Part shown: positions 1 to 19,028 of the stretch, piece by piece
How positions within the stretch are numbered: the stretch's first letter is position 1
Layout: each line of letters opens with the position of its first letter
Position numbers and translations under genes: made by a program
Assembly: GCA_934097085.1 (NCBI GenBank)
Contig: CAKONK010000018.1
Coordinates: 1-19,475, forward strand
DNA: 19,475 bases
Direction: 5' to 3'
Source of the DNA: an uncultured Bacilli bacterium
Lineage (GTDB): Bacteria > Bacillota_I > Bacilli_A > RF39 > UBA660
Notes under the pieces: model-generated
Databases searched by the model: none
What the model was told of the DNA's origin: nothing
Seen by the model: only the letters and a program-made list of their open reading frames with translations

Positions 1-554
1 CCATTTTGACTTTTTTCTGAGTTCTGTTTTTGAGAACCATCACTTTGCTGAGCATTTTTACCATTTTGACTATTATCTTTTTTTTGATGATTATTGCTAT
101 TTGAGTTATTTTGCTGATTTTGATGTTCTTGACTATTTTGTTGATTTTCTTGATTTTGCTGTTTTTCTTGTAATAGTTTTTCGTATAGTTGTTCAGCATC
201 ATAATTTAATGCATCTGCTATATCGACACCACCTTCTGGCATTTTTAAACCATCTCTTTTTAAAAATTGATTTGTAACTCCATCAGTTGCAATATTCCAT
301 AGGTTTATATCTTTCCCTTCACTTCTTAATATGTGATTAAAAGCAATATGACATACTTCATGAGCAAACACAAAAGTTTGCTCCTCTTTACTTAAACTAT
401 TTAAATAATCAGGATTATAATAAATTATCTGTCCATTAGTACCAGCTGTTCCTAAACTTTTATCTTCTTCATATTTAACATTTGCTATTACGCTTCCAAA
501 AAAAGGGTATTTTACTAACATTTTATTTTTTATTGACTTTATATCATAATTCAT
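1..554 (-). CDS. Putative zincin metallopeptidase (DUF2201_N / COG3864-like). N-terminal part only; the gene runs off the left edge, where a vWA-like domain is expected.
   Basis: Not in the ORF track. ATG at 552-554 (minus) is preceded by AGGAG (561-565) with a 6-nt spacer. My translation: MNYDIKSIKNKMLVKYPFFGSVIANVKYEEDKSLGTAGTNGQIIYYNPDYLNSLSKEEQTFVFAHEVCHIAFNHILRSEGKDINLWNIATDGVTNQFLKRDGLKMPEGG... It carries HExxH (HEVCH) and a downstream WNIATD motif typical of the 'putative metallopeptidase' domain that pairs with MoxR-type ATPases. A Q/N-rich linker (QQNQENQQNSQEHQNQQNNSNSNN...) then continues to nt 1 without a stop. Confidence 0.75.
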   Translation of the reverse strand, partial: MNYDIKSIKNKMLVKYPFFGSVIANVKYEEDKSLGTAGTNGQIIYYNPDYLNSLSKEEQTFVFAHEVCHIAFNHILRSEGKDINLWNIATDGVTNQFLKRDGLKMPEGGVDIADALNYDAEQLYEKLLQEKQQNQENQQNSQEHQNQQNNSNSNNHQKKDNSQNGKNAQQSDGSQKQNSEKSQN

Positions 555-564
555 AATTTACTCC

Positions 565-957
565 TTATATACATGCAACTAGTGAAAAGATTTCGTTACT
601 TATTTTTTCAGTATTTATTTCATTGGCAGTTATAATAATCAAACAATCTTTAGGTAATTCAAATGTAGATATTTTTCTATATTTTAATAATTCTACAAAT
701 TTTAATTGTTCTTCTTTAGAAATAGTATCAATTCTATCAATTACTAATATTTTATTTTTAGTTGAAGAAAGTATTTCATTTAACCATTTAGGGGGAATAA
801 AATCTAGCCCTTCATAATGACCATTTAATTCTTTAATATCAATATCAGCAGGTATAGTAACAGCAAAATCTAATTCATTAATAGATAAAAAATCCACTAA
901 TACGGGTGCAACATTTGATTTTAAATAAGTTAAAAACATTTCTTTTTTATCTTTCAC
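565..957 (-). CDS. Degenerate (P-loop-less) paralog of the upstream AAA_5 ATPase core
   Basis: 130-aa ORF. The GTG start (955-957) overlaps the TGA stop of the upstream gene (GTGA), with GGAGG 12 nt upstream. An alternative ATG start lies at 937-939. It aligns by eye to residues ~358-500 of the 668-aa ATPase: ELNGHY/SLNGKS, IPPKWLNEI/VPPTWLKKL, ILVIDRIDT/IVFFDEITN, ELPKDCLIIITAN/KLPENARIIAAGN, IFSLVACI/LFNRFAHVYI. Walker A is replaced (DFLSINEL versus GPSSEGKS) and the Walker B DE pair becomes DR. Confidence 0.6.
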   Translation of the reverse strand: MKDKKEMFLTYLKSNVAPVLVDFLSINELDFAVTIPADIDIKELNGHYEGLDFIPPKWLNEILSSTKNKILVIDRIDTISKEEQLKFVELLKYRKISTFELPKDCLIIITANEINTEKISNEIFSLVACI

Positions 958-2960
958 TTTCTACTTAAACCTCCACTAGCAAGTTTAATCTCAGCTAGTT
1001 TTTCTAATCTACTTTCATCACCATGAACCCATAATGAATCAAAAATTGCTCCAAACTCTTTTCCTAAATTAATTGCAAAATTTCTTACTTTTTCTAAATT
1101 TTCTTCATCTACTTGAGATAAACCTAATATTGTTGCATATCTTGCTGCTGTATTTAAAAAATCAATATCTCTGTAATTATAATTTTCATTTATTACATCA
1201 TTTAGTGTTATTACCTCTTGATTACAAAATGCTACAAACTCTTTTGTTATATCTTCTCCTACTAATGCTCTGAGCATTTCTGGATTTCTTGTACTATATA
1301 ACATTTTTGATGCCATTTCCCATTTTCTTGGATCTGCATTTGGTTTTTCTCCATTATAGTTACTTCTTAATACCATCCCTTTTTTATAAGCTATAAAAGT
1401 ATAAATTGCTGGATGAATATTATTTTCACTTGCCCATTTTAGCCAACTTTGAGTTGTTGTTTTTATATATACATGTGCAAATCTATTAAATAATGGTTTC
1501 GCTAACTGATTTGCTGCTAAGGAATCTTTCATATCATTTCCCGCTGCTATTATTCTTGCATTTTCTGGTAATTTCCATATTCCATTTACTTCTCTATCTA
1601 AAACTATATTAAAGGCTATTCCTTGAATACTTGGTAATGCATTTGTTATCTCATCGAAAAATACTATATGATATCTATCAGGTTCATTGCTACATTTTTC
1701 TTGCAATTTCTTTAACCAAGTTGGTGGAACATCTATCATTTCCCCAGTTTGCTGATTATACACACTTTTTCCATTTAAACTCTCTGGAGTTGCATTTCTT
1801 AAATATATTATTTCACAAGTTGGATCTATTTGTTTTACTCTTGCTGACTTTCCTTCAGATGATGGTCCATGTAAAAATACTGCCACTCCACTTTCAACAG
1901 CTCCCTTAATTATATCTTCCTCGCTTACTTCACCAAAGTCTAAATTATATGGATTTTTTCTTTTTTCTGCTTGTAATTCAACAACTTGCTCTATTTCTTC
2001 ATATTCAAAATTATTTTCAACTTCATATTCTGAATTATTTTCAACTTTTGGTTCTTCAGGCTTTGGTTCTTGAATTAATTTTTTTTGATAATCTTTTACA
2101 GCTTTATTAAGTTTCTGATTACGAATAGAGCTTTTCAAATGATTTTGAATATTTACATTTGAAATATTTAACGAAACAGTATTTTGGAAAAGATCATGAA
2201 GCATGTAATTATCAAGATATTTTTTCATTGCTGTATTATCAAAGCAGCCATCAAAACCTGCTCTATAAGGATTAAAACTTATACCGGCAACTAAACATTT
2301 TTTAGAAATTAGCAATTGTGTTTTATCATCAACAAGCCATTTAACTGGTGAGACTTCTACCCAAACATAATCACCATTTGTATATTCAACCCCGTTTGAA
2401 AGTAATAAGTAATGCTCATTATATCCTAAATTTGCTTCAATACGAATATATTTTTTCCCTTGATATTCATATTCCTTATAAGTTACAGGTTTAAATGATC
2501 CATCATTAAAACGACAAGGTACCGAATTAAATGTATAACTTCTTCCTGTTTTATTCAAACCTTTTTTATGTTTTAGTCTTAACTCTAACTCATTTTGTAA
2601 TGTTTCAGAAGCAGCATATTGAGGATACTCTCCATATTCGATTTCCTCTGTACCATCGTATCCTGTAGTTATAGCCCAAATAGATTGTGAATATAATAGA
2701 GAATTTAGCAACACTGGTCGAATAGAGATATTAGGTTTATGCACATAATTTAGAGCTTTTTTGCCATCTTCATCAACAATCCTAACATCGTTATCAAATT
2801 GAGATTTAGTATAAAAATAGCCATTTTTACACCCTGTTAAAATACACAAATCTGTTACTGTAGCTTGTGTTCCATATTCTTTCAAAACCTCTAATTGGGA
2901 TTCAGAGTCATCTCCCCAAATTTGTCCTTCAGTTAATAAAGTTAATTCTTGATTATTCAT
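954..2960 (-). CDS. AAA_5 / MoxR-like ATPase with a ~260-aa N-terminal putative ligand-binding domain
   Basis: 668-aa ORF with GGAGGGGG 4 nt upstream of the ATG. Walker A GPSSEGKS (nt 1845-1868), Walker B HIVFFDE, sensor-1-like IIAAGN, and LFNRF (Arg). An acidic linker carries the tandem repeat VENNSEYE/VENNFEYE. The N-terminus has ISIRPVLL, VKWLVDDKTQLLISKKCL and MKKYLDNYM motifs. No signal peptide or TM segment. Confidence 0.8.
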   Translation of the reverse strand: MNNQELTLLTEGQIWGDDSESQLEVLKEYGTQATVTDLCILTGCKNGYFYTKSQFDNDVRIVDEDGKKALNYVHKPNISIRPVLLNSLLYSQSIWAITTGYDGTEEIEYGEYPQYAASETLQNELELRLKHKKGLNKTGRSYTFNSVPCRFNDGSFKPVTYKEYEYQGKKYIRIEANLGYNEHYLLLSNGVEYTNGDYVWVEVSPVKWLVDDKTQLLISKKCLVAGISFNPYRAGFDGCFDNTAMKKYLDNYMLHDLFQNTVSLNISNVNIQNHLKSSIRNQKLNKAVKDYQKKLIQEPKPEEPKVENNSEYEVENNFEYEEIEQVVELQAEKRKNPYNLDFGEVSEEDIIKGAVESGVAVFLHGPSSEGKSARVKQIDPTCEIIYLRNATPESLNGKSVYNQQTGEMIDVPPTWLKKLQEKCSNEPDRYHIVFFDEITNALPSIQGIAFNIVLDREVNGIWKLPENARIIAAGNDMKDSLAANQLAKPLFNRFAHVYIKTTTQSWLKWASENNIHPAIYTFIAYKKGMVLRSNYNGEKPNADPRKWEMASKMLYSTRNPEMLRALVGEDITKEFVAFCNQEVITLNDVINENYNYRDIDFLNTAARYATILGLSQVDEENLEKVRNFAINLGKEFGAIFDSLWVHGDESRLEKLAEIKLASGGLSRK

Positions 2961-2982
2961 TTAACCCCCTCCATGGGACTAT

Positions 2983-3010
2983 ATTCTATCATAAAATAAT
3001 TAAAAGTCAA
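2983..3010 (-). promoter_or_regulatory. Sigma-70-type promoter for the ATPase operon
   Basis: Minus strand reads TTGACT (3005-3010), a 16-nt spacer, then TGa-TAGAAT (extended -10, 2983-2991). This lies about 20 nt upstream of the GGAGGGGG RBS. Confidence 0.5.
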
Positions 3011-3154
3011 GCTAAACTATCTTACGCATGAAATATAAAATTATATGGTTTTTCTAATACTATATCATCTGTATTTAAAAATTTAAATAATTTTCCAATT
3101 TTTTACATTTTTTAGCCATACTTCACCAACTTTATTCTTTACTTTATTATACAT

Positions 3155-3187
3155 AAAAAAACACGCGTTTCAAAATTTCATGTGTTT
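3155..3187 (-). terminator. Candidate rho-independent terminator (second of two downstream of the kinase-SIS gene)
   Basis: Minus-strand AAACAC ... GTGTTT stem (3182-3187 / 3159-3164) followed by UUUU. The loop is about 17 nt, so this is weak. Confidence 0.3.
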
Positions 3188-3205
3188 CTCCTATTCGTAA
3201 ATAAA

Positions 3206-3239
3206 TTATAAAAAGAAGTATGCTTTTGTTTACATACTT
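3206..3239 (-). terminator. Candidate rho-independent terminator of the kinase-SIS gene
   Basis: Minus-strand AAGTATG-taaacaaaag-CATACTT hairpin (3216-3239) followed by CTTTTTAT. It starts 16 nt after the TAA stop at 3255-3257. Confidence 0.45.
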
Positions 3240-3254
3240 TATCAGTCATATTAT

Positions 3255-5201
3255 TTACAACTGTCCTTTATAAAAATAGATTTTCATTGCATTATCTGTA
3301 TAATTAGGTTTAGAAACATCAATATCTAATAACTTACCTATTTGATATATTATAAATTGTGAAGCAATTAATAAATCAAATTCTGCCAAAAGGCCATCGT
3401 ATTTACTTTCAAAAATAGCAATTTTATTTCCTAAATAATTTAATAATTCTTCTTCATATTTTGAGGTAGTCTTTTGTTTGAAATAGATTACACATTTATT
3501 GTTCATATTTTCAAAATTAATAAATCTTCCGTGAGAAAAATTTTTCTTTTCGTGAATAATACAGTTAAATATACCAGATTCAATAAGTTTACTTTCTAAA
3601 TCATAACTTGCACAGTTACTATAATCTCCTCGAAAAACATTAATTATTTTATTATGATTAATAGCACTTTCAATAAAATTTTTATCAATTTCTTTTTGAA
3701 CTTTATTACTCCAGTAACTCATAGAATCCTTGATAAAATTATTTATATTAATATCACTATTGGACTTTTGTAAATATAATTTCATAAATAATGCAGCTGG
3801 TGCTAAAGCTCCCTCAAAAGATAAAAATCCCCTTTCTTTACCTTTATTTGCACTTGTCCTATAAGTGATTATATTATTTTTCATAATACCTGTTTTTGTT
3901 ACAATATTTTGGGTTTGCCCTTTTGTAATTACATACACATTATTTTTATCAAAATCTTTAACACTTTGAATTATATCATTAGTCGTTCCTGAATATGAAA
4001 ATAAAAATGCTTTATCTATATTTGCATTATTTCTATAAAATGCATCTCTTGGGTACAATGAATAAGTACTTGCACCATATAACTCATTTATAACTGTTGA
4101 TGCAAAACTAGCCCCTGCAAAAGAACCACCTGTTCCAATGAATAAATAGCTTTTACTTTTATCAAAATTTATATCTAGTAACTTATCATAAGCACTAGAA
4201 TTAATAGCATTAATAACTCTTGCCTCAAGATTATTTATATTAATATTACATCTTTTAATTTTTCTTCTTTCATTATACTCAAAATTTTCACAAGTACAAA
4301 CTTTATCTATTTTTTTAATTTTATATAATGAATTTAAATGTCCTCTTGCACCAAAGTTAGATACAACCTTACTAGTTAATTTAATAGATTTTTCATACCA
4401 TTTTGGAAAAAGTTCTTTATTAAATTCATAATTATTTTTTATATAATCAAATATTATGCTAGATAAAAATGCATCTCCGGCACCCGAAGAATCAATAACA
4501 TTACCATTATCTTTTAAATTAAATTTATATTCTTTACTATTATATATAAAGATTGCACCATTTTCTCCACGAGTAATAGTTACTAATTTTGCCTTTAGTA
4601 ATTTATATAATTCAATATTATTTTTTAAATTTAATTTATCAAGTAAATAGTTTGACACTCTTTCATTAAAATTAATTATTTCAAAACCATTATTTAATTT
4701 ATTTATAATGTCCTCTTTTGATAAATTTTCAAATTCAAAATACTGGCCAATATCAATTATTTTTTTATTAGAAACGTTTTTTATTATTTCAATATTTTTA
4801 TCATTTAAATTATCAAAGACTAAAATATCATCATTTTGTATATTATTAGTTATATATTCTATATCAATTTGACTTTCTTCATACCATTTTTTTTCATTAC
4901 ATTTTGGACATCTTTTTTTAGAAATAAAACCTTCTTCATCATAAGAAACATGAAAGCATCTTGTCTTAATATTATCTTTAATTAATACTTTGCTTACATC
5001 AACATTTAATTTTTTTAAACTTAAATTAGCAATATTGCCTTGTATATCATTACCAGAAACTCCATATACTGCTGTAGAAATTTTTCTTTTTGCTAAATTT
5101 GCAATAATATTATGGCTACTCATTCCTCCATCAACACCAATTAAATTTCCATTTTTATAGTAATAATCTAAAACTAAATCTCCAATACTAACTACTCTCA
5201 T
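3255..5201 (-). CDS. Fusion protein: PfkB-family sugar kinase (with a Cys/His zinc knuckle) + tandem SIS (GlmS-C/AgaS/FrlB-like) sugar-phosphate isomerase/deglycase module
   Basis: 648-aa ORF. The N-terminus MRVVSIGDLVLDYYY plus VIDSSGAGDAF (PfkB signature 2, ~aa 236-245) mark the kinase. C82-x-H84 ... C98-P-K-C101 is inserted where the PfkB lid sits. The linker has C302-x-C304 ... C318. The SIS motifs are LFIGTGGSFAGASFA and FSYSGTTNDII. A second SIS-like half contains NFSHGRFINF. Confidence 0.75.
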   Translation of the reverse strand: MRVVSIGDLVLDYYYKNGNLIGVDGGMSSHNIIANLAKRKISTAVYGVSGNDIQGNIANLSLKKLNVDVSKVLIKDNIKTRCFHVSYDEEGFISKKRCPKCNEKKWYEESQIDIEYITNNIQNDDILVFDNLNDKNIEIIKNVSNKKIIDIGQYFEFENLSKEDIINKLNNGFEIINFNERVSNYLLDKLNLKNNIELYKLLKAKLVTITRGENGAIFIYNSKEYKFNLKDNGNVIDSSGAGDAFLSSIIFDYIKNNYEFNKELFPKWYEKSIKLTSKVVSNFGARGHLNSLYKIKKIDKVCTCENFEYNERRKIKRCNININNLEARVINAINSSAYDKLLDINFDKSKSYLFIGTGGSFAGASFASTVINELYGASTYSLYPRDAFYRNNANIDKAFLFSYSGTTNDIIQSVKDFDKNNVYVITKGQTQNIVTKTGIMKNNIITYRTSANKGKERGFLSFEGALAPAALFMKLYLQKSNSDININNFIKDSMSYWSNKVQKEIDKNFIESAINHNKIINVFRGDYSNCASYDLESKLIESGIFNCIIHEKKNFSHGRFINFENMNNKCVIYFKQKTTSKYEEELLNYLGNKIAIFESKYDGLLAEFDLLIASQFIIYQIGKLLDIDVSKPNYTDNAMKIYFYKGQL

Positions 5202-6587: not shown

Positions 6588-6620
6588 AAATACTGGTTAT
6601 AAAAATCAGTATTTTTTATT
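6587..6620. terminator. Bidirectional rho-independent terminator between convergent rpmB and the histidine kinase gene
   Basis: AAAATACTG (6587-6595) pairs with CAGTATTTT (6607-6615). T-runs follow the hairpin on both strands. It sits exactly between the two stop codons (6585-6587 and 6620-6622). Confidence 0.65.
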
Positions 6621-8476
6621 TATCTTTTACAAAATATATTATTTAAAAGCACTTGAAGTTCTTCTCTATTAATAGGTTTTGAAATATAGCCATCAAAGCC
6701 CTCTTTTAAATAAAACTCTTTCATACCTACCATTGCATTAGCAGTAAGAGCAATTACCGGAGGAATCTTAACACCCTCTAAATTTTTAAGCGTTTTTAAA
6801 GTTTGAATACCATCCATAAGAGGCATCATATGGTCTAAAAATATTAAATCGTATCTTGCTCCACCTTTAATTTTTTCAATAGCCTCTGCTCCACTTTGAA
6901 GGCAAGTAATATTAAATTTATAATCAGATAATATTCTTTGAGCAACTTTTAAATTTAAAATATTATCATCAACAATTAATATATCATATAGTGAACCATC
7001 AAAATGTACATTTGTGGTACTTACTTTAGTTTGCGTATTAACTTCTTCTTTTTCAATAGCATTAAAATCTATTTTCTGTGGAAGTACTACTGTAAATGTT
7101 GTTCCAACCTTATATTTTGAGGTAAATGATATTGTTCCTCCTAAAAGTTCTACTAACTTCTTTGTTATAACAAGACCAAGTCCAGTACCCTCAACTTCGT
7201 TATAATTTTCTTGATTATGAATTCTTGAAAATTTAACAAATAATTTATCATAATCACTTTCTTTAATACCAATTCCTGTATCTGCTACAGAAAATTTAAC
7301 TGTAGCCATATCGCCAACATTTTCACTAGTGATATTAAAATCTATATGGCCCTCATCTGTATACTTTGCAGCATTTGATAATATATTCATAAGTATTTGA
7401 TATATTTTAAGTTCATCACCTATCATAAATTTAGGTACATCCGAAGATATATTTATATTAAGTTTTACTTTATTTTGATCTAGTTTAGCGGTTATTACCG
7501 ATGAAAGCTGCATAATAATCTTACGCATTTCATAAGTAGTTTCTTTCTTTTCCTCTTTACCACTTTCAATTCTTGAAACATCCAAAATATTATTAATAAT
7601 TCCTAAAAGTGTTGAGGCTGCATCATAAATACTTTGAACTTCATTTTTTTGATTTATTGGCATATTCTCTGTAAGAAGACTTTCAGAAAAACCTATTATA
7701 GCATTCATTGGTGTTCTAATATCATGACTCATATTTGATAAAAAGTCTGTTTTTGCTTTTGAGGCTTCATTAGCCTCTTCTTTATCTTTTTCAAGTTCAT
7801 TTATTATCTTTAAATCTGGATTTTCCATTGTAAAGTAAATAAGTGCTATTACAAGTCCCATTATCGAGCTATTAATTGAAACACTTGGATTTACCCAACT
7901 AATAATTATACCTATAAGGCCCAAAAAAGCAAATAAGAAAACTATTATTTTTTTACTGAAATCAAGTTTTTCTTTTTTATAAATCATATATATTACCAAA
8001 AGTCCACTGTAAACGATATTAACTATATATGTAAAATATAAATCTCTACCATTTTGATAAGCAATTAATTTATCGCTATCAACAAAATAATTTGGTTTTA
8101 AATAAATACTTACTGCACATAATATTAAACTTATTATCATTAAAATTATATAAAAAGGATTACTTTTAAATAATTCTTTTAAAGTTTTAAATTCTTTTTT
8201 TAGGGAACTAATATAAATGATTAGCCAAGTGCTCCATATAATAGTGCTTACTAAAAATCCTTTACAAATAATCATATTTAATAGTTCATATTTATCTTGA
8301 AAAAATAATAAATAGTTTTTAACGCCATCAAATAAAATTACAATAAATGTTAAAATTGAAAATACCTCAAAGTTTTTATTTTCTAAACTTTTTTCTTTTC
8401 TTTTTTTAGTAAATACACTAAGTAGTAATAATAAATAACATATTGATAATATCTGAAGTAAACAAGATCTTATCAT
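6620..8476 (-). CDS. Membrane-bound hybrid sensor histidine kinase (multi-TM sensor + HisKA + HATPase_c + receiver)
   Basis: 618-aa ORF with about 6-7 hydrophobic segments in the first ~215 aa. H-box SHDIRTPMNAI, N-box NILSNAAKYT, G1 DTGIGI and G2 GTGLGL. The C-terminal REC domain has ILIVDDN ... DLIFLDHMMPLMDG ... ALTANA ... YISKP. The ATG overlaps the upstream TGA (ATGA). Confidence 0.9.
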   Translation of the reverse strand: MIRSCLLQILSICYLLLLLSVFTKKRKEKSLENKNFEVFSILTFIVILFDGVKNYLLFFQDKYELLNMIICKGFLVSTIIWSTWLIIYISSLKKEFKTLKELFKSNPFYIILMIISLILCAVSIYLKPNYFVDSDKLIAYQNGRDLYFTYIVNIVYSGLLVIYMIYKKEKLDFSKKIIVFLFAFLGLIGIIISWVNPSVSINSSIMGLVIALIYFTMENPDLKIINELEKDKEEANEASKAKTDFLSNMSHDIRTPMNAIIGFSESLLTENMPINQKNEVQSIYDAASTLLGIINNILDVSRIESGKEEKKETTYEMRKIIMQLSSVITAKLDQNKVKLNINISSDVPKFMIGDELKIYQILMNILSNAAKYTDEGHIDFNITSENVGDMATVKFSVADTGIGIKESDYDKLFVKFSRIHNQENYNEVEGTGLGLVITKKLVELLGGTISFTSKYKVGTTFTVVLPQKIDFNAIEKEEVNTQTKVSTTNVHFDGSLYDILIVDDNILNLKVAQRILSDYKFNITCLQSGAEAIEKIKGGARYDLIFLDHMMPLMDGIQTLKTLKNLEGVKIPPVIALTANAMVGMKEFYLKEGFDGYISKPINREELQVLLNNIFCKR

Positions 8477-9969
8477 TTAATATCACCAATTATTTTATTA
8501 AATATTTCAATACTTTCAGGACTATATTTAGTGCCATTTTTACTTACAATTAATTTAATCATATCTTCTTTAGAAACTTTTTTAATAATGCCTCTTGCAT
8601 ATTCATAAGCAATATTTACAAGATATACATATAAAGGTACTTCACCCTCTTTTAAAGATTTAGGAAATCCTTTACCATCATATCTTTCATTATGCATTAA
8701 ACAAATATTTCTAGCATATTCTTTAGTTTTTTCATCCAAGAAATTCATATTATTTAATACCATAACTGATTTATATGGATAAGAATATATTACCTTTTTT
8801 TCATCGTCATTTAAATTACTGAAACTATTAAAATATGATACTGGTGCAAGTTTTAAACCTACATCATAATACTTTGCAGCATTAATAATTATATCTTTGT
8901 TATCTGTAAGCATTAGGAAAAGCACTTCTGATACTTTTTGATATACACCGTTATTATCTATTAAGTAAGATTCTACATAATCATCTAAAATACTACTTAA
9001 ATCTTTATTTTGAGATTTAATAATTTCTGATAAATAATTATTTTTTGAATACATTCTTACCATATTATTTAATCTTTTATTAATAATTTCAAAGTTAAAT
9101 GGTTTTTCTATCATATCGGCTATTTCATAAGCATAGACCTTTTCTTTAGTATCTTTACTATCATCAGCAGAAACTATAACAACAGGCATTTTATTAAGTA
9201 GTCTTTTTTCATTTAGAAAGTCTAGTACGCCAAAGCCATCCATAACTGGCATTTTTAAATCTAAGAACATACCAACAATATTTTTTTCATTTGTTTTTAA
9301 ATTATTATTAATTATTTCTACAGCTTCTTCACCATTTTTCGCTTCGATTATGTTATACGAAGAAAATGCTTTTTTAAAAATACTTCTTGTTAAATCATCA
9401 TCATCAATTATCAAAAGGTATTCTGTAAAATTATTCATTTTACTTATAAGTTTTCCTTCATAATATTTATTAATCTCTGGATTTTTCTTAACTACATCAT
9501 ATAAAAGTGATGAAAAATAGTTATATAGATTATTAATTTCATTATTATCTCTTGAGATACTTTCTAAAGTATTTTCAATATTTAAAATTAAATCTGTTAT
9601 ATCACTACTTATATCATTTTTTTCTTCTTTTTTAGGTTTTTCCTCAGACTTAAAGGAAACAATAAATACTTTATTTCCCGGAAGTAATTTAACAAGAGCA
9701 GTATAATTATCATATATAAGTAAATTAGATAATTTTAGAAAGTTAATAGTTTTATAACCATCAAGTGGTAAATTATTAGCGCTTATTTCATTAAAATAAG
9801 TATTTGCATAATCGGGATGAAGACTTTTTTTACATCTTTCAAAGTAATCTTCATAACTAATACTTGATGGATTTTCTGTATATTTATCATATAAATAAAC
9901 TTTATCTTCGTTTAAATCTATTAAAGTTATATCAATGATATTAAATAAATCATTTATTAAATTATTCAT
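8473..9969 (-). CDS. Response regulator: unknown N-terminal domain (~180 aa) + receiver + degenerate HD-GYP-like domain
   Basis: 498-aa ORF. REC: LLIIDDDD ... MFLD237LKMPVMDG ... VIVSADD ... IEKP. C-terminus: AAKYYDVG in place of HDxGK, and MHNERYDGKGFP in place of HHExxDGxGYP. Confidence 0.8.
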   Translation of the reverse strand: MNNLINDLFNIIDITLIDLNEDKVYLYDKYTENPSSISYEDYFERCKKSLHPDYANTYFNEISANNLPLDGYKTINFLKLSNLLIYDNYTALVKLLPGNKVFIVSFKSEEKPKKEEKNDISSDITDLILNIENTLESISRDNNEINNLYNYFSSLLYDVVKKNPEINKYYEGKLISKMNNFTEYLLIIDDDDLTRSIFKKAFSSYNIIEAKNGEEAVEIINNNLKTNEKNIVGMFLDLKMPVMDGFGVLDFLNEKRLLNKMPVVIVSADDSKDTKEKVYAYEIADMIEKPFNFEIINKRLNNMVRMYSKNNYLSEIIKSQNKDLSSILDDYVESYLIDNNGVYQKVSEVLFLMLTDNKDIIINAAKYYDVGLKLAPVSYFNSFSNLNDDEKKVIYSYPYKSVMVLNNMNFLDEKTKEYARNICLMHNERYDGKGFPKSLKEGEVPLYVYLVNIAYEYARGIIKKVSKEDMIKLIVSKNGTKYSPESIEIFNKIIGDIK

Positions 9970-10333
9970 TGTTACCTCCGAAGAATGTATCTAATACTTT
10001 ATATAGTTCATTGGCCTTTACAAAAAGATTAGTAATATTTTGATTTATAAAATTAATATCACCATTTTTCGCAGCCATTTCGTGTTCATACGCCATATTA
10101 GCAAAATTCATTATTCCAAAAGTTTTACAATTACTTTTTAGAGCGTGAACTTTTACTCCATAGTTTTCAATATCTTTATTTTCATATAAAGTTCTTATCT
10201 CATTCATTTGATTAATAAAACCATTTTTAAACTCTAATAAAAGTTCTTTGTAAGATGTTTCATCGCCAATAAAAGATAATCCTAAATCTACATCAATTCC
10301 ATTATTTTTTAAATATTCTAAAGTATTATTCAT
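9962..10333 (-). CDS. Hpt (histidine phosphotransfer) domain protein
   Basis: Hpt motif VHALKSNCKTFG (H-x-x-K-[GS]). I prefer the ATG at 10331-10333 (MNNTLEYL...). The track start at 10375 has no RBS and lies in the A-run of the upstream hairpin. The stop overlaps the RR start (ATGAATAA). Confidence 0.7.
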   Translation of the reverse strand: MNNTLEYLKNNGIDVDLGLSFIGDETSYKELLLEFKNGFINQMNEIRTLYENKDIENYGVKVHALKSNCKTFGIMNFANMAYEHEMAAKNGDINFINQNITNLFVKANELYKVLDTFFGGNNE

Positions 10334-10402
10334 AAGTCCACTACCCTTTCCTAGTATACAATAATATTTTAGCATAAAAAAACACTATTTAAAATAGCAT
10401 TT

Positions 10403-11578: not shown

Positions 11579-12526
11579 TTAAGGTTCAGAAATAATTTGT
11601 GAATATTCTATGTTTGCCATAAATCTTTTAGAACCATTTTGAATTTGATTATGCATGTAATTTATTAAAGTAACTCTAGCCATATAATAATCATTAATTT
11701 TGCCAATAGCTTTGCTTGTAGTCATTTCTACATTATCCGCTAAATTAATTGTTCCTTGAGTATTTGTAATATCATATGTATTTTGAAGAACATAACACTT
11801 GTTATTTGATGCATTATAGTAATCAGCAACCCATCTATTTAAGCCATCACAATCTGCTTCAGAAGTTATACCATCAACAACTTGTCTATTAGGATCATAA
11901 CATTTACCAGTATTACAATTTTCTTGTGTTCTAGAATTATCAACTTTATAAAAATCTAATACTAATTCTGCATCTTTTCTAGTTTCCCAAATATATGTGT
12001 CACTAGCGGTACATGAGAACATATTATCTAAATAGCCATCACTTGATAATGTATTACCTTTGGCATAGCATTTTTCCTCTTTACCATCCGTCGCCCAAAT
12101 ATTTGCACCAGTACATTCTTCCTTAGAAACATCTACAGTCTCTCTTTTTTCATAACAAGTACCTGAGGTATATTCCATATCATTTTGTGTAATATTTAAA
12201 TCAATTTTATACTTTCTTGTTGATTCAGCTTCATTTCCAGTTGTAAAAGTAATACTTCCAAATGAATTATCACTTAAATCCTCCCCAGCAACAGCTTGAT
12301 CTTTACCAAAATTTTCAGTATTTGCTACTAACTCGATTGGCGTACCAGCATCAATTAAAAATAAATCGCTTGATACATTAGTCGTAACATTAATATTAGA
12401 ATTACCCTTTCCATCAACTTGACTTGCTAAGTAGGCAAATGTTGCTCCGATTACAACAACTAACATAGTTACTATTGCTATTACTGTAAGAAGAACTACA
12501 TTGCTTTTTTTTGAACTTTCATCCAT
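11579..12526 (-). CDS. Secreted/cell-surface protein with a SipW(TasA)-type signal peptide and a duplicated Cys-rich insert
   Basis: 315-aa ORF with GGGAG 9 nt upstream. N-terminus: KKSNVVLLTVIAIVTMLVVVIGATFAYLAS (G-x-TFAY[FL] motif). Eight Cys residues fall in two similar units. Confidence 0.75.
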   Translation of the reverse strand: MDESSKKSNVVLLTVIAIVTMLVVVIGATFAYLASQVDGKGNSNINVTTNVSSDLFLIDAGTPIELVANTENFGKDQAVAGEDLSDNSFGSITFTTGNEAESTRKYKIDLNITQNDMEYTSGTCYEKRETVDVSKEECTGANIWATDGKEEKCYAKGNTLSSDGYLDNMFSCTASDTYIWETRKDAELVLDFYKVDNSRTQENCNTGKCYDPNRQVVDGITSEADCDGLNRWVADYYNASNNKCYVLQNTYDITNTQGTINLADNVEMTTSKAIGKINDYYMARVTLINYMHNQIQNGSKRFMANIEYSQIISEP

Positions 12527-17264: not shown

Positions 17265-19028
17265 CTAATTTACTGTGTAAACATCATTATATTTTCCACT
17301 TCCTAGTAACTTACTTTCAGAGGATAGAGAAACTACACCACGGACCGCAACATTGCGAGAATCAACAAGGCCATCAAGAAAACTACCAAACGGATCAAGA
17401 CCAAACACATGCGAACCACTATCAATGAACACAAGAGGGGAGCCCGCCCAATATGCCATATTATTATTTAAATAGAAAGCACTGTTGTCCGTGCCAATTT
17501 TTCCTCCAGCTAGCACTATTTCATCCTCTGTTATTAGTCCTAAATTATTTGTTACCACATCTGCATTATTACATTCAAATGTAGGTGTTGGAGGACTTGA
17601 ACTTAATCTAGTATATGGAGCATATTCAAAATCTCTGCCATTCGATGCCCATGTTCTAGATGTATTTCTATCATTGCAAAATGTTGTTTTAACAAATCTT
17701 GATGTTCCTATATTTTCATTAAAATATTTTGTATACCAATTATCTAAATATGTTTTTATTGTACTATTTGTGTTTGTTCCTCTTTGAGAACCAGTTGTAT
17801 ATTGAAATCCTACATATTCTGCTTTATCATATTTATTATTATAAGCTGTAAAGCCCATATTTGTATCTGCCCCAGTAATTGCAACTTTTGCATTTTCACT
17901 CGGTGCTTTACTTCCTGCATATATCATTTTTATTTTATTATTTTTATCTACTCTTATTATTCTCCAGTACATATCATCACCTTTATTGGCATATACTACT
18001 TCTTTACATTTATAGTTATATGTTGAATCATAATCCACACCAGTTTGACATTCTGCTAATGTTGGGTAATCTATGTAGTTAGCCTGATTATTTACACTAT
18101 CAAACCATACATCAGTGTTTGTTGTATCGTCTCTAAAACCTCTATAAACAATTTGGTCTGCTTTAAACTTACCATATTTTACCCAGTTGTTATCTACTGC
18201 ACCTCTATAATAATATGTTTTACCTGTTCCTTCTGTATATGAAAACATTCCTGCATTACTAGTTTCTACTGTTGTAAAATCTGCTGTTTTTGCCTCAATT
18301 GCAGTTTTACCACCATTATTAGCAAGTATTGTTTCATAACCTTTTTTAACTGTTGTACCATCTTTTGTAGAACAATTTACATTTTCTACATATATTTTAC
18401 CAGTAAAAGATTTACCACTTAAAGCATATTGATTTAAATCTAAATTATAATATCTACCAGTAACTTTCCATCTTACTGATTGCTCCGTACCCAAACTTTT
18501 TAATGTAGCTCCAGTTACTAATGTAACTTTTGCTCCTGTTGAGGAAGTAGCATTACTCCATCCTTTACTTGTATCAAAATTAAAATTAGTTTCTGTAGCA
18601 AAATGATTATTTCCATTCATACCATTTACTTCAATAGTTATTTCTTTAGTAGCATCAGTAGTAACTGGTACAGTTTTACCATATATATCACTATTTGTAT
18701 TATATTCATAAACTAAATCATAAGAACATGTTGTTAAAAAACCTTCTGCTCCTGTTAAAGTTATATCTACAAAACCAGTATCTTCTTTCGCAGCAACTGT
18801 ATTATTTGTATTATACTGAGCCATTGAGGTATCAGGTACTTGTATATTTAACTGAGTAGAATTTGCAATAAAAGATAAATTACCAGGACTTGTAGAATTA
18901 ATGTTAACTGCTACATTATTATTTAAATTTATATTAAATGTTCCTAAATATGCATAAGCTGCACCAATAACTAAAATAAGAAAGAATACACTTGATAAAA
19001 TAACTTTTAATTTATTTTTGCTTTTCAT
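17265..19028 (-). CDS. Large secreted/cell-surface protein: SipW-type signal peptide, beta-rich N-terminal module, C-terminal lectin-like module
   Basis: 587-aa ORF with GAGGA 5 nt upstream and a TAG stop. N-terminus: KLKVILSSVFFLILVIGAAYAYLGT. Later motifs in order: MYWRIIRVDKNNKIKMIYAG, STIKTYLDNWYTKYF, LGLITEDEIVLAGG, AYWAGSP, VAVRGVVSL. Confidence 0.8.
   Translation of the reverse strand: MKSKNKLKVILSSVFFLILVIGAAYAYLGTFNINLNNNVAVNINSTSPGNLSFIANSTQLNIQVPDTSMAQYNTNNTVAAKEDTGFVDITLTGAEGFLTTCSYDLVYEYNTNSDIYGKTVPVTTDATKEITIEVNGMNGNNHFATETNFNFDTSKGWSNATSSTGAKVTLVTGATLKSLGTEQSVRWKVTGRYYNLDLNQYALSGKSFTGKIYVENVNCSTKDGTTVKKGYETILANNGGKTAIEAKTADFTTVETSNAGMFSYTEGTGKTYYYRGAVDNNWVKYGKFKADQIVYRGFRDDTTNTDVWFDSVNNQANYIDYPTLAECQTGVDYDSTYNYKCKEVVYANKGDDMYWRIIRVDKNNKIKMIYAGSKAPSENAKVAITGADTNMGFTAYNNKYDKAEYVGFQYTTGSQRGTNTNSTIKTYLDNWYTKYFNENIGTSRFVKTTFCNDRNTSRTWASNGRDFEYAPYTRLSSSPPTPTFECNNADVVTNNLGLITEDEIVLAGGKIGTDNSAFYLNNNMAYWAGSPLVFIDSGSHVFGLDPFGSFLDGLVDSRNVAVRGVVSLSSESKLLGSGKYNDVYTVN
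17331..17450 (-). other. Adenine-depleted 3' patch; candidate DGR variable region (VR)
   Basis: Hand count: 11 A in 120 coding-strand nt, versus 51 in the adjacent 120 nt (17451-17570). About 48% GC. Synonymous codons are A-free. See findings. Confidence 0.4.

Follow-up and report, generated by a model that had tools for sequence, protein, structure and literature searches.

Diversity-generating retroelements (DGRs) reach a very high density in the human gut, and, to our knowledge, nearly all of the gut DGR targets characterised so far are phage tail or surface adhesins. DUF6273 targets of this kind are known from phages of gut Firmicutes, namely the tentaclins (PMC10743442) and the targets of Faecalibacterium prophages (PMC11792537). 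DGR-diversified lectin-fold sensors have also been linked to MoxR-vWA conflict systems in cyanobacteria, Chromatiales and actinobacteria (PMC7159879, PMC10907252), and one of these sources (PMC10907252) describes CLec-AAA ATPases of candidate phyla radiation (CPR) bacteria as further DGR targets. Here we describe a three-gene locus on contig CAKONK010000018.1 of an uncultured Bacilli genome (GCA_934097085.1). The stretch analysed, hereafter the window, is 19,475 nucleotides (nt) long, and all window positions refer to it. The locus encodes a sensor-ATPase, a 130-amino-acid (aa) degenerate AAA+ protein and a zincin-vWA peptidase. In related gut bacteria the ATPase's N-terminal domain (N-domain) is the target of a DGR, and the family is probably a programmable molecular sensor.

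We compared the locus with the VMAP and iSTAND systems of Kaur et al. 2020 (PMC7159879) and with the loci that Dore et al. 2024 (PMC10907252) described from Thiohalocapsa and cyanobacteria. Like these vWA-MoxR ternary systems, it has three components, two of which are a MoxR-like ATPase and a vWA protein; it also resembles them in having a peptidase as putative effector and, in relatives, a DGR-diversified sensor domain, a lectin fold there and possibly lectin-like here. As in the iSTAND type, the third component is predicted to be an inactive NTPase. However, here it is the N-terminus of the ATPase that carries the diversified domain, and in the described systems the C-terminal end of the vWA protein. 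Here the peptidase is a zincin N-terminal to the vWA domain and there a trypsin or caspase on VMAP; a bare 130-aa AAA+ core, paralogous to the ATPase, takes the place of VMAP or iSTAND as third component. With its C-terminal vWA domain and N-terminal zincin, the peptidase also departs from the definition of Kaur et al., in which effectors lie C-terminal to the vWA domain (VMAP was set apart by description). The hosts differ as well, being small-genome unicellular gut Bacilli and Clostridia and not multicellular cyanobacteria, actinobacteria and Chromatiales, and the window copy itself lacks a DGR. The CPR CLec-AAA proteins likewise fuse a DGR-diversified domain, there of lectin fold, to an AAA ATPase, but, in a comparison made by description only, their variable domain is described as C-terminal, the reverse transcriptase (RT) belongs to another clade and the source reports no zincin-vWA partner. 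Five features appear to be undescribed in the literature searched: a diversified domain fused to the N-terminus of the ATPase, a zincin-vWA partner resembling phage N4 gp25, a bare dead AAA+ protein as third component, an occurrence in small-genome gut Bacilli and Clostridia, and fixed allele or paralog repertoires that replace the DGR.

In a conservation scan of one genome per species, which returned 77 loci, the trio recurred in the same order in ~50 uncultured gut Bacilli, including records labelled Tenericutes/Mycoplasma, Clostridium sp. CAG:417 and CAG:609, Coprobacillus sp. CAG:605 and Candidatus Faecisoma. A further ~16 Clostridia, Zhenpiania hominis and Lentihominibacter among them, carry the ATPase and zincin-vWA genes without the small gene. 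As the order ATPase, 130-aa protein, zincin-vWA is kept with the same tight spacing in ~50 species-level genomes, it is evidently not a product of chance.

An earlier note on this DNA had described the trio as a tightly coupled operon behind one good promoter, and most of that description holds. The three open reading frames, read directly, lie on the same (minus) strand, and their order and close spacing recur in relatives. The GTG start of the small gene overlaps the stop codon of the ATPase gene in a GTGA at 954-957, and the 10-nt spacer between the small gene and the peptidase gene (555-564) is present. AAGGAG lies 6 nt ahead of the peptidase ATG, and the ATPase ATG is preceded by the ribosome-binding site GGAGGGGG. 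Nor does any terminator-like site occur on the minus strand within 1-3400. The candidate promoter, which matches at 10 of the 12 hexamer positions and has an extended -10 TG in addition, is present as the note had read it; promoter-like sites number 21 against 22.8 expected in shuffled sequence, and by itself the motif is weak evidence in DNA so rich in AT. As promoter-like hexamers are just as frequent in the shuffles, the case for an operon draws instead on the spacing, the terminator-free minus strand and the conservation.

The evidence on what the N-domain may do comes from the relatives (numbered loci, L). At L082, whose ATPase is 64% identical to that of the window, an RVT_1 reverse transcriptase lies directly upstream, with a bAvd-like protein before the RT (Pfam); PHROGs names the first of them 'Reverse transcriptase' (E 2e-107) and the second 'Avd protein of DGR' (E 9e-13). 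An 80-nt repeat between Avd and RT recurs inside the ATPase gene, and all 11 of the 11 mismatches between the copies fall at adenines of the upstream one. A self-BLAST screen found the same arrangement at L006, L015, L024, L025, L026, L028, L034 and L053, which with L082 makes at least nine related loci with template repeat/variable repeat (TR/VR) pairs. These pairs are 80-100 nt long and differ at 10-14 positions each, of which 82-100% per locus are TR adenines; their boundaries are sharp, and an invariant A-to-C marker lies at the 3' end. The TR encodes VRAVNKNGNRNNKYRYKRNGAVRPDL, in which the variable codons are AAY and AAR, and the VRs of different genomes differ exactly at these codon positions. 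By alignment, the VR corresponds to aa 57-85 of the window ATPase, a beta-hairpin-rich stretch in the AlphaFold2 (AF2) model, and to the C-terminal end of weak matches to DUF6273; in published DUF6273 C-lectin-like DGR targets, the VR occupies the same position in DUF6273 (PMC11792537, PMC10743442). Because the DGR rewrites a block on its surface in relatives, we predict that the N-domain presents a ligand-recognition surface, DGR targeting being the strongest evidence for such a surface obtainable by computation. The earlier note had thought that the domain looked like a ligand-binding module, and the retroelement gives that impression substance.

Of 84 loci, a total that includes the window, 19 have an RT or remnants of one directly upstream of the ATPase gene. 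At L007, L016, L020, L039 and L056 they are clear pseudogene remnants or fragmented frames, and these broken reading frames show repeated decay of the DGR in the lineage while the three-gene module stayed. Directly upstream of Avd in L082 (L082:6346-6834) we also observed a gene for a ~162-aa protein without a Pfam match, with homologues at L006, L015, L024, L025, L028 and L034; its role may be that of an additional accessory factor of the DGR or of a system component.

The AF2 model of the N-domain is one compact, mostly beta fold with a predicted local distance difference test score (pLDDT) of 95 and a predicted template modelling score of 0.92, which agrees with the separate ~260-aa domain claimed earlier. 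It is common to 1545 representative clusters (50% identity). In the best 150 of them it stands as a single copy in 83 (mostly ~270-350 aa), as a tandem double in 46 and fused to the same AAA+ module in ~18, and it would accordingly be both a discrete fold, as modelled, and a mobile module. No signal peptide was seen on the N-domain proteins inspected by sequence reading. Against Pfam DUF6273 (gathering threshold 23.5 bits) the window N-domain gave no match and those of relatives gave weak ones (15.8-16.6 bits). Tandem-domain relatives scored 26.3 bits, which exceeds the cut-off, and 20.9 bits; these matches span the junction between the copies, suggesting a permuted or re-bounded unit. The relatives' Avd-TR-RT cassette is of the phage type; the DUF6273 targets of phages, however, are virion or secreted adhesins with Ig domains, whereas the domain here is predicted to be cytoplasmic, is fused to an ATPase and scores below the DUF6273 threshold. 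PDB sequence and profile searches with the N-domain profile gave no meaningful match. In the PDB searches as a whole, made with the ATPase, the N-domain and AAA+ profiles and the full-length peptidase, one hit, to hemopexin (E 0.0016), was judged spurious, as it rests on a short repeated YxFKGxKYVR-like motif.

In the window itself the block equivalent to the VR is in place, aligned to the VRs of the nine loci above, and the surroundings are bare of a retroelement. Within the 19.5 kb we found no TR/VR pair (in a self-BLAST screen for A-biased repeats) and no RT, Avd or homologue of the ~162-aa protein. The block also lacks the GC-rich 3' element common to the TR and VR of relatives (ATCTCTATTCGACCAGTGTTGC against GGTGCTGTTCGCCCAGCTTTGC). 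No strain variation was seen in it among the 15 members of its 90% cluster, which together stand for more than 100 contigs, and an alternative allele is equally static across ~105 sequences. The two alleles divide by strain at the PfkB...RuvA site: L001-L003 and L005 have allele A only, the window has allele B only, and L004 has A and B in tandem. They share 54% identity over aa 1-100 and 63% over aa 100-260 of the N-domain, 45% over the linker that follows (which is mostly deleted in 643-aa relatives) and 95% over the AAA+ module. The 130-aa protein of the window is 100% identical to its copies in L001 and L004. As judged from these alignments, allelic replacement stands in place of DGR diversification in the window's species. 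We also observed that the window allele lacks, at aa 44-45 (nt ~2826-2831), ~22 aa that most relatives possess (consensus ..D.DY.DED.SLTGRT..); this gap sits a little upstream of WWT.S and of the block equivalent to the VR, and the N-domain model still reaches a pLDDT of 95.

Paralogs tell a similar story in other genomes, where N-domains are 43-88% identical within a genome and motors 91-98%. Tandem arrangements are frequent: up to three ATPase copies in a row precede one small gene and one zincin-vWA gene, and whole modules occur in tandem as well, up to three of them on contig CAKOQK010000005.1. Diverging N-domains on motors more than 90% identical suggest concerted evolution of the motor.

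The motor carries Walker A, Walker B, sensor 1 and Arg finger, all intact and invariant across the alignment of relatives, and is thus potentially active. We found 2514 homologues of the ATPase, and it matches the phage family phrog_1297 'ATPase' (E 1.2e-48). The 130-aa protein, which the earlier note took for an ATPase paralog without a P-loop, indeed aligns to ATPase residues 381-496 (BLASTP E 0.004; hhalign probability 80%, E 1.4e-5, 100 columns), and the alignment reaches from strand 2 through Walker B and sensor 1 into the Arg-finger region. It has no GK[ST] or Walker A motif, DR in place of the Walker B DE (LVIDRID, 721-747), which removes the catalytic Glu, and IFSL where the ATPase has the Arg-finger FNRF. 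All 534 of its homologues are ~130 aa long, and by these features we read it as a dead AAA+ core without a lid.

The peptidase is an HExxH zincin, as had been read from the letters, with a DUF2201_N match of E 2.6e-35 (122.8 bits, the cut-off being 23.2). It was also expected to continue into a vWA domain, and relatives 97.8% identical over the window's 184 aa do end in a DUF2201 vWA-like domain (E 1.3e-13). Full-length relatives (L001, L002) are 711-786 aa long, with DUF2201_N followed by DUF2201, and the L001 protein has the MIDAS-type motifs DTSGS, GGTD and TDGE, its MIDAS being intact. Between zincin and vWA runs a linker rich in Q, N, S, E and K, which starts at ~nt 176 in the window; the rest of it and the vWA domain fall left of nt 1. 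This linker is made of a 225-nt (75-aa) unit repeated in tandem (in L002 4.4 times, at 94% match), whose copy number differs by strain (711 versus 786 aa; L001:10413-12548, L002:10413-12773). Other species have a shorter linker. In character it brings to mind the acidic stretch preceding the MIDAS domain in midasin/Rea1. PDB sequence and profile searches with the full-length peptidase gave no meaningful match, and the protein matches the phage family phrog_1314 (E 1.4e-57). Homologues in NC_048654.1 (16518-17687) and NC_071039.1 (238080-239264) are annotated 'HNH endonuclease' (RefSeq, PHROGs phrog_1314), a label that seems to have been passed on in error, since what they have in common with the peptidase is DUF2201_N and a vWA-like domain. 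The features of the locus are collected in Table 1.

Table 1. Positions of the genes, domains and motifs of the sensor-ATPase locus in the window, and loci with tandem copies
Feature	Position	Strand	Remark
Gene 1, sensor-ATPase of 668 aa (variable domain at the N-terminus, then linker and AAA+ module)	954..2960	minus	ATG start
Gene 2, predicted 130-aa degenerate AAA+ alpha/beta core	565..957	minus	GTG start
Gene 3, 5' part of zincin, 184 codons	1..554	minus	runs off left window end
Candidate sigma-70-type promoter, TTGACT-16-TGaTAGAAT	2983..3010	minus	upstream of ATPase gene
N-terminal domain, aa 1-260, DUF6273-like / lectin-like	2181..2960	minus	AF2
Block equivalent to DGR variable repeat, aa 57-85, NDVRIVDEDGKKALNYVHKPNISIRPVLL	2706..2792	minus	alignment to VRs
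Charged variable linker, aa 261-335	1956..2180	minus	joins N-domain to AAA+ module
AAA+ module, aa 336-668 (C-terminal 333 aa)	957..1955	minus	nearly invariant across relatives
Walker A, GPSSEGKS	1845-1868	minus	
Walker B, FFDE	1650-1661	minus	
Sensor 1, AAGN	1536-1547	minus	
Arg finger, FNRF	1479-1490	minus	
Zincin motif of peptidase, HEVCH	348-362	minus	
Loci with tandem ATPase copies or modules	L004:763-4896; L023/L027; L033; L035; L038; L043		

Diversification, whether by retroelement or by alleles, is restricted to the binding domain, and the three genes are tightly co-inherited. We think it somewhat more probable than an even bet that the trio is a sensor, switch and protease machine in a biological-conflict (invader-sensing) role, of the type of the DGR-linked MoxR-vWA systems. 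The mechanism that we propose is modelled on MoxR-vWA pairs and on the vWA-MoxR conflict systems linked to DGRs (PMC7159879, PMC10907252). The three parts, a MoxR-like (N4 gp24-like) ATPase, a dead AAA+ core and a zincin-linker-vWA/MIDAS protein, would form a cytoplasmic machine in which the variable N-domain recognises a changing, probably foreign, ligand. Capture of this ligand would gate ATP hydrolysis by the ATPase ring, which would in turn remodel the vWA/MIDAS partner, possibly via its long disordered linker, and thereby activate or release the zincin to cleave its target. The dead AAA+ subunit could serve as an adaptor, a regulator or a brake of the ring.

More tentatively, and with less than even confidence, we suggest that the family may be a class of immune receptors, so far undescribed, that act inside the cells of Bacilli of the human gut. 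The MoxR-like ATPase would then form a hexamer and display N-terminal lectin-like domains of a permuted DUF6273 type, whose specificity would come from the upstream DGR, in a somatic style, or, where the DGR has been lost as in the window, from divergent germline alleles and tandem arrays; ligand binding would trigger the zincin-vWA effector via the dead AAA+ adaptor.

A number of observations weigh against the conflict role. The N-domain is static in the window's species, and no ongoing diversification can be claimed there. A Foldseek search with the N-domain model returned nothing below E 0.1 in the PDB or BFVD, C-type lectins included, and the full-length ATPase model (AF2, 18-sequence alignment) has a pLDDT of 37 and is unusable. 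The MoxR/AAA_5 assignment made by the earlier note is upheld by the motif set and the vWA neighbour and is left short by the Pfam AAA_5 match, which is below threshold (E 0.005, 17.2 bits where 22 are required); PDB searches by sequence and by AAA+ profile turned up no solved relative. PADLOC (PADLOC-DB 2.0), run on the three proteins as that note had advised, matched no curated defence model, and NCBIfam has no name for any of the trio. Finally, the flanks in five further loci are mostly housekeeping genes (TsaD, TyrRS, PNPase, FemAB, a permease), together with one Fic gene and one transposase-like gene of the PD-(D/E)XK nuclease family, and show no defence islands; an Abi_2 gene and a DNA methylase were nearby in L082 only. 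Because the flanking genes vary by genome and are mostly housekeeping, we regard the module as a self-contained cassette and no part of a prophage.

Three other, less probable explanations have to be set against the conflict role. The locus could be a classical MoxR-vWA chaperone or maturation system, with the N-domain as a substrate adaptor and the pair assembling or metallating a housekeeping complex. Its AAA_5-like motor with Walker A/B, sensor 1 and Arg finger beside a MIDAS-vWA partner is shared with RavA-ViaA, CbbQ-CbbO and NorQ-NorD, housekeeping genes surround the locus in the window and at several further loci, and a static N-domain in the window's species would suit such a role. We nonetheless consider it unlikely: in relatives it is the N-domain that a DGR diversifies, N-domains diverge within the arrays of paralogs and of modules, the chromosomal position varies with no client gene conserved alongside, and the zincin motif of the partner is intact, although it is dispensable for classical MoxR partners. 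Moreover, no relation to solved MoxR proteins is detectable in sequence, and the classical pairs lack the extra sensor domain and the dead paralog seen here. Also unlikely, in our judgement, is a sensor for the cell's own or environmental signals, in which the zincin would cleave a regulator as ImmA/IrrE-type metalloproteases cleave repressors. The zincin does match the SprT-like, M48 and M78/IrrE families weakly, the three proteins look cytoplasmic, with no signal peptides on sequence reading, and cyanobacterial DGR targets have been proposed to tune regulation (PMC7517822); however, no conserved regulator or helix-turn-helix gene accompanies the module, and multi-copy arrays fit the expansion of a repertoire better than the regulation of a single pathway.

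The phage homologues bear on the remaining explanation, namely that the locus is a phage module of the N4 gp24/gp25 kind, either domesticated or cryptic, whose part would lie in superinfection exclusion or in phage-type transactions of DNA or the nucleoid and whose N-domain would derive from a phage receptor-binding lectin. Homologues of the ATPase were found in 709 phage records and of the zincin-vWA protein in 411, as N4 gp24-like and gp25-like proteins in Schitoviridae and also in the jumbo phage PA5oct. Like the bacterial locus, these phages encode a homologous AAA+ module and a DUF2201_N-vWA protein in genes close together, and the core pair evidently also serves a phage-encoded role, a further point against the conflict role. 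A phage origin is in keeping with the phrog_1297 and phrog_1314 matches, as well as with DUF6273 and such DGRs being typical of gut Firmicutes phages (PMC10743442, PMC11792537). Yet the phage ATPases lack the N-terminal variable domain, identity is only 25-32%, and the phage genes are separated by unrelated small genes, among which no homologue of the 130-aa protein was found. As there are also no other phage genes in the window or in the relatives' loci, we hold this explanation, too, to be unlikely.

If the conflict role is correct, the idea of a hypermutated antigen sensor, argued mainly for multicellular cyanobacteria and Chromatiales, would reach small-genome unicellular gut Firmicutes, and the widespread N4 gp24/gp25-like pair of ATPase and zincin-vWA protein would gain a testable role. 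The family also offers a natural comparison of DGR-driven diversification with allele and paralog repertoires of the same sensor, and the three-gene cassette is compact enough for heterologous reconstitution.

Two secreted proteins are encoded elsewhere in the window, one of 587 aa (17265-19028, minus) and one of 315 aa (11579-12526, minus), both without a Pfam match. The N-domain had been said to share motifs with the 587-aa protein, a claim that did not reach significance (BLASTP E 0.35; 1.5 bits with a profile hidden Markov model; no Pfam match). The best profile alignment places VLAGG / YWAGS / VAVRGVV in register with ILTGG / WYWTKS / AIRPVL, and a distant homology is possible. Homology of the N-domain to the 315-aa protein was not significant (BLASTP, profile hidden Markov model, Pfam at E up to 10). 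DUF6273-like motifs of the 587-aa protein (LITEDEI, YWAGSP, VAVRGVV) are below significance. In both proteins the N-terminus ends in a transmembrane segment followed by ATFAYLAS or AAYAYLGT, which resembles SipW/TasA-type signal peptides.

Directly upstream of the promoter region of the trio lies a gene for a 648-aa protein that joins a PfkB-family sugar kinase to a C-terminal half of SIS-like type (3255-5201, minus); the gene keeps that position in L001-L005. Further along, an operon at 6620-10375 (minus) encodes a hybrid histidine kinase (HisKA-HATPase_c-Response_reg), an HD_5 response regulator and a 137-aa protein without a Pfam match, which we take to be possibly Hpt-like. LemA-family and other membrane proteins adjoin this operon; the Pfam labels here were taken from the syntenic L001.

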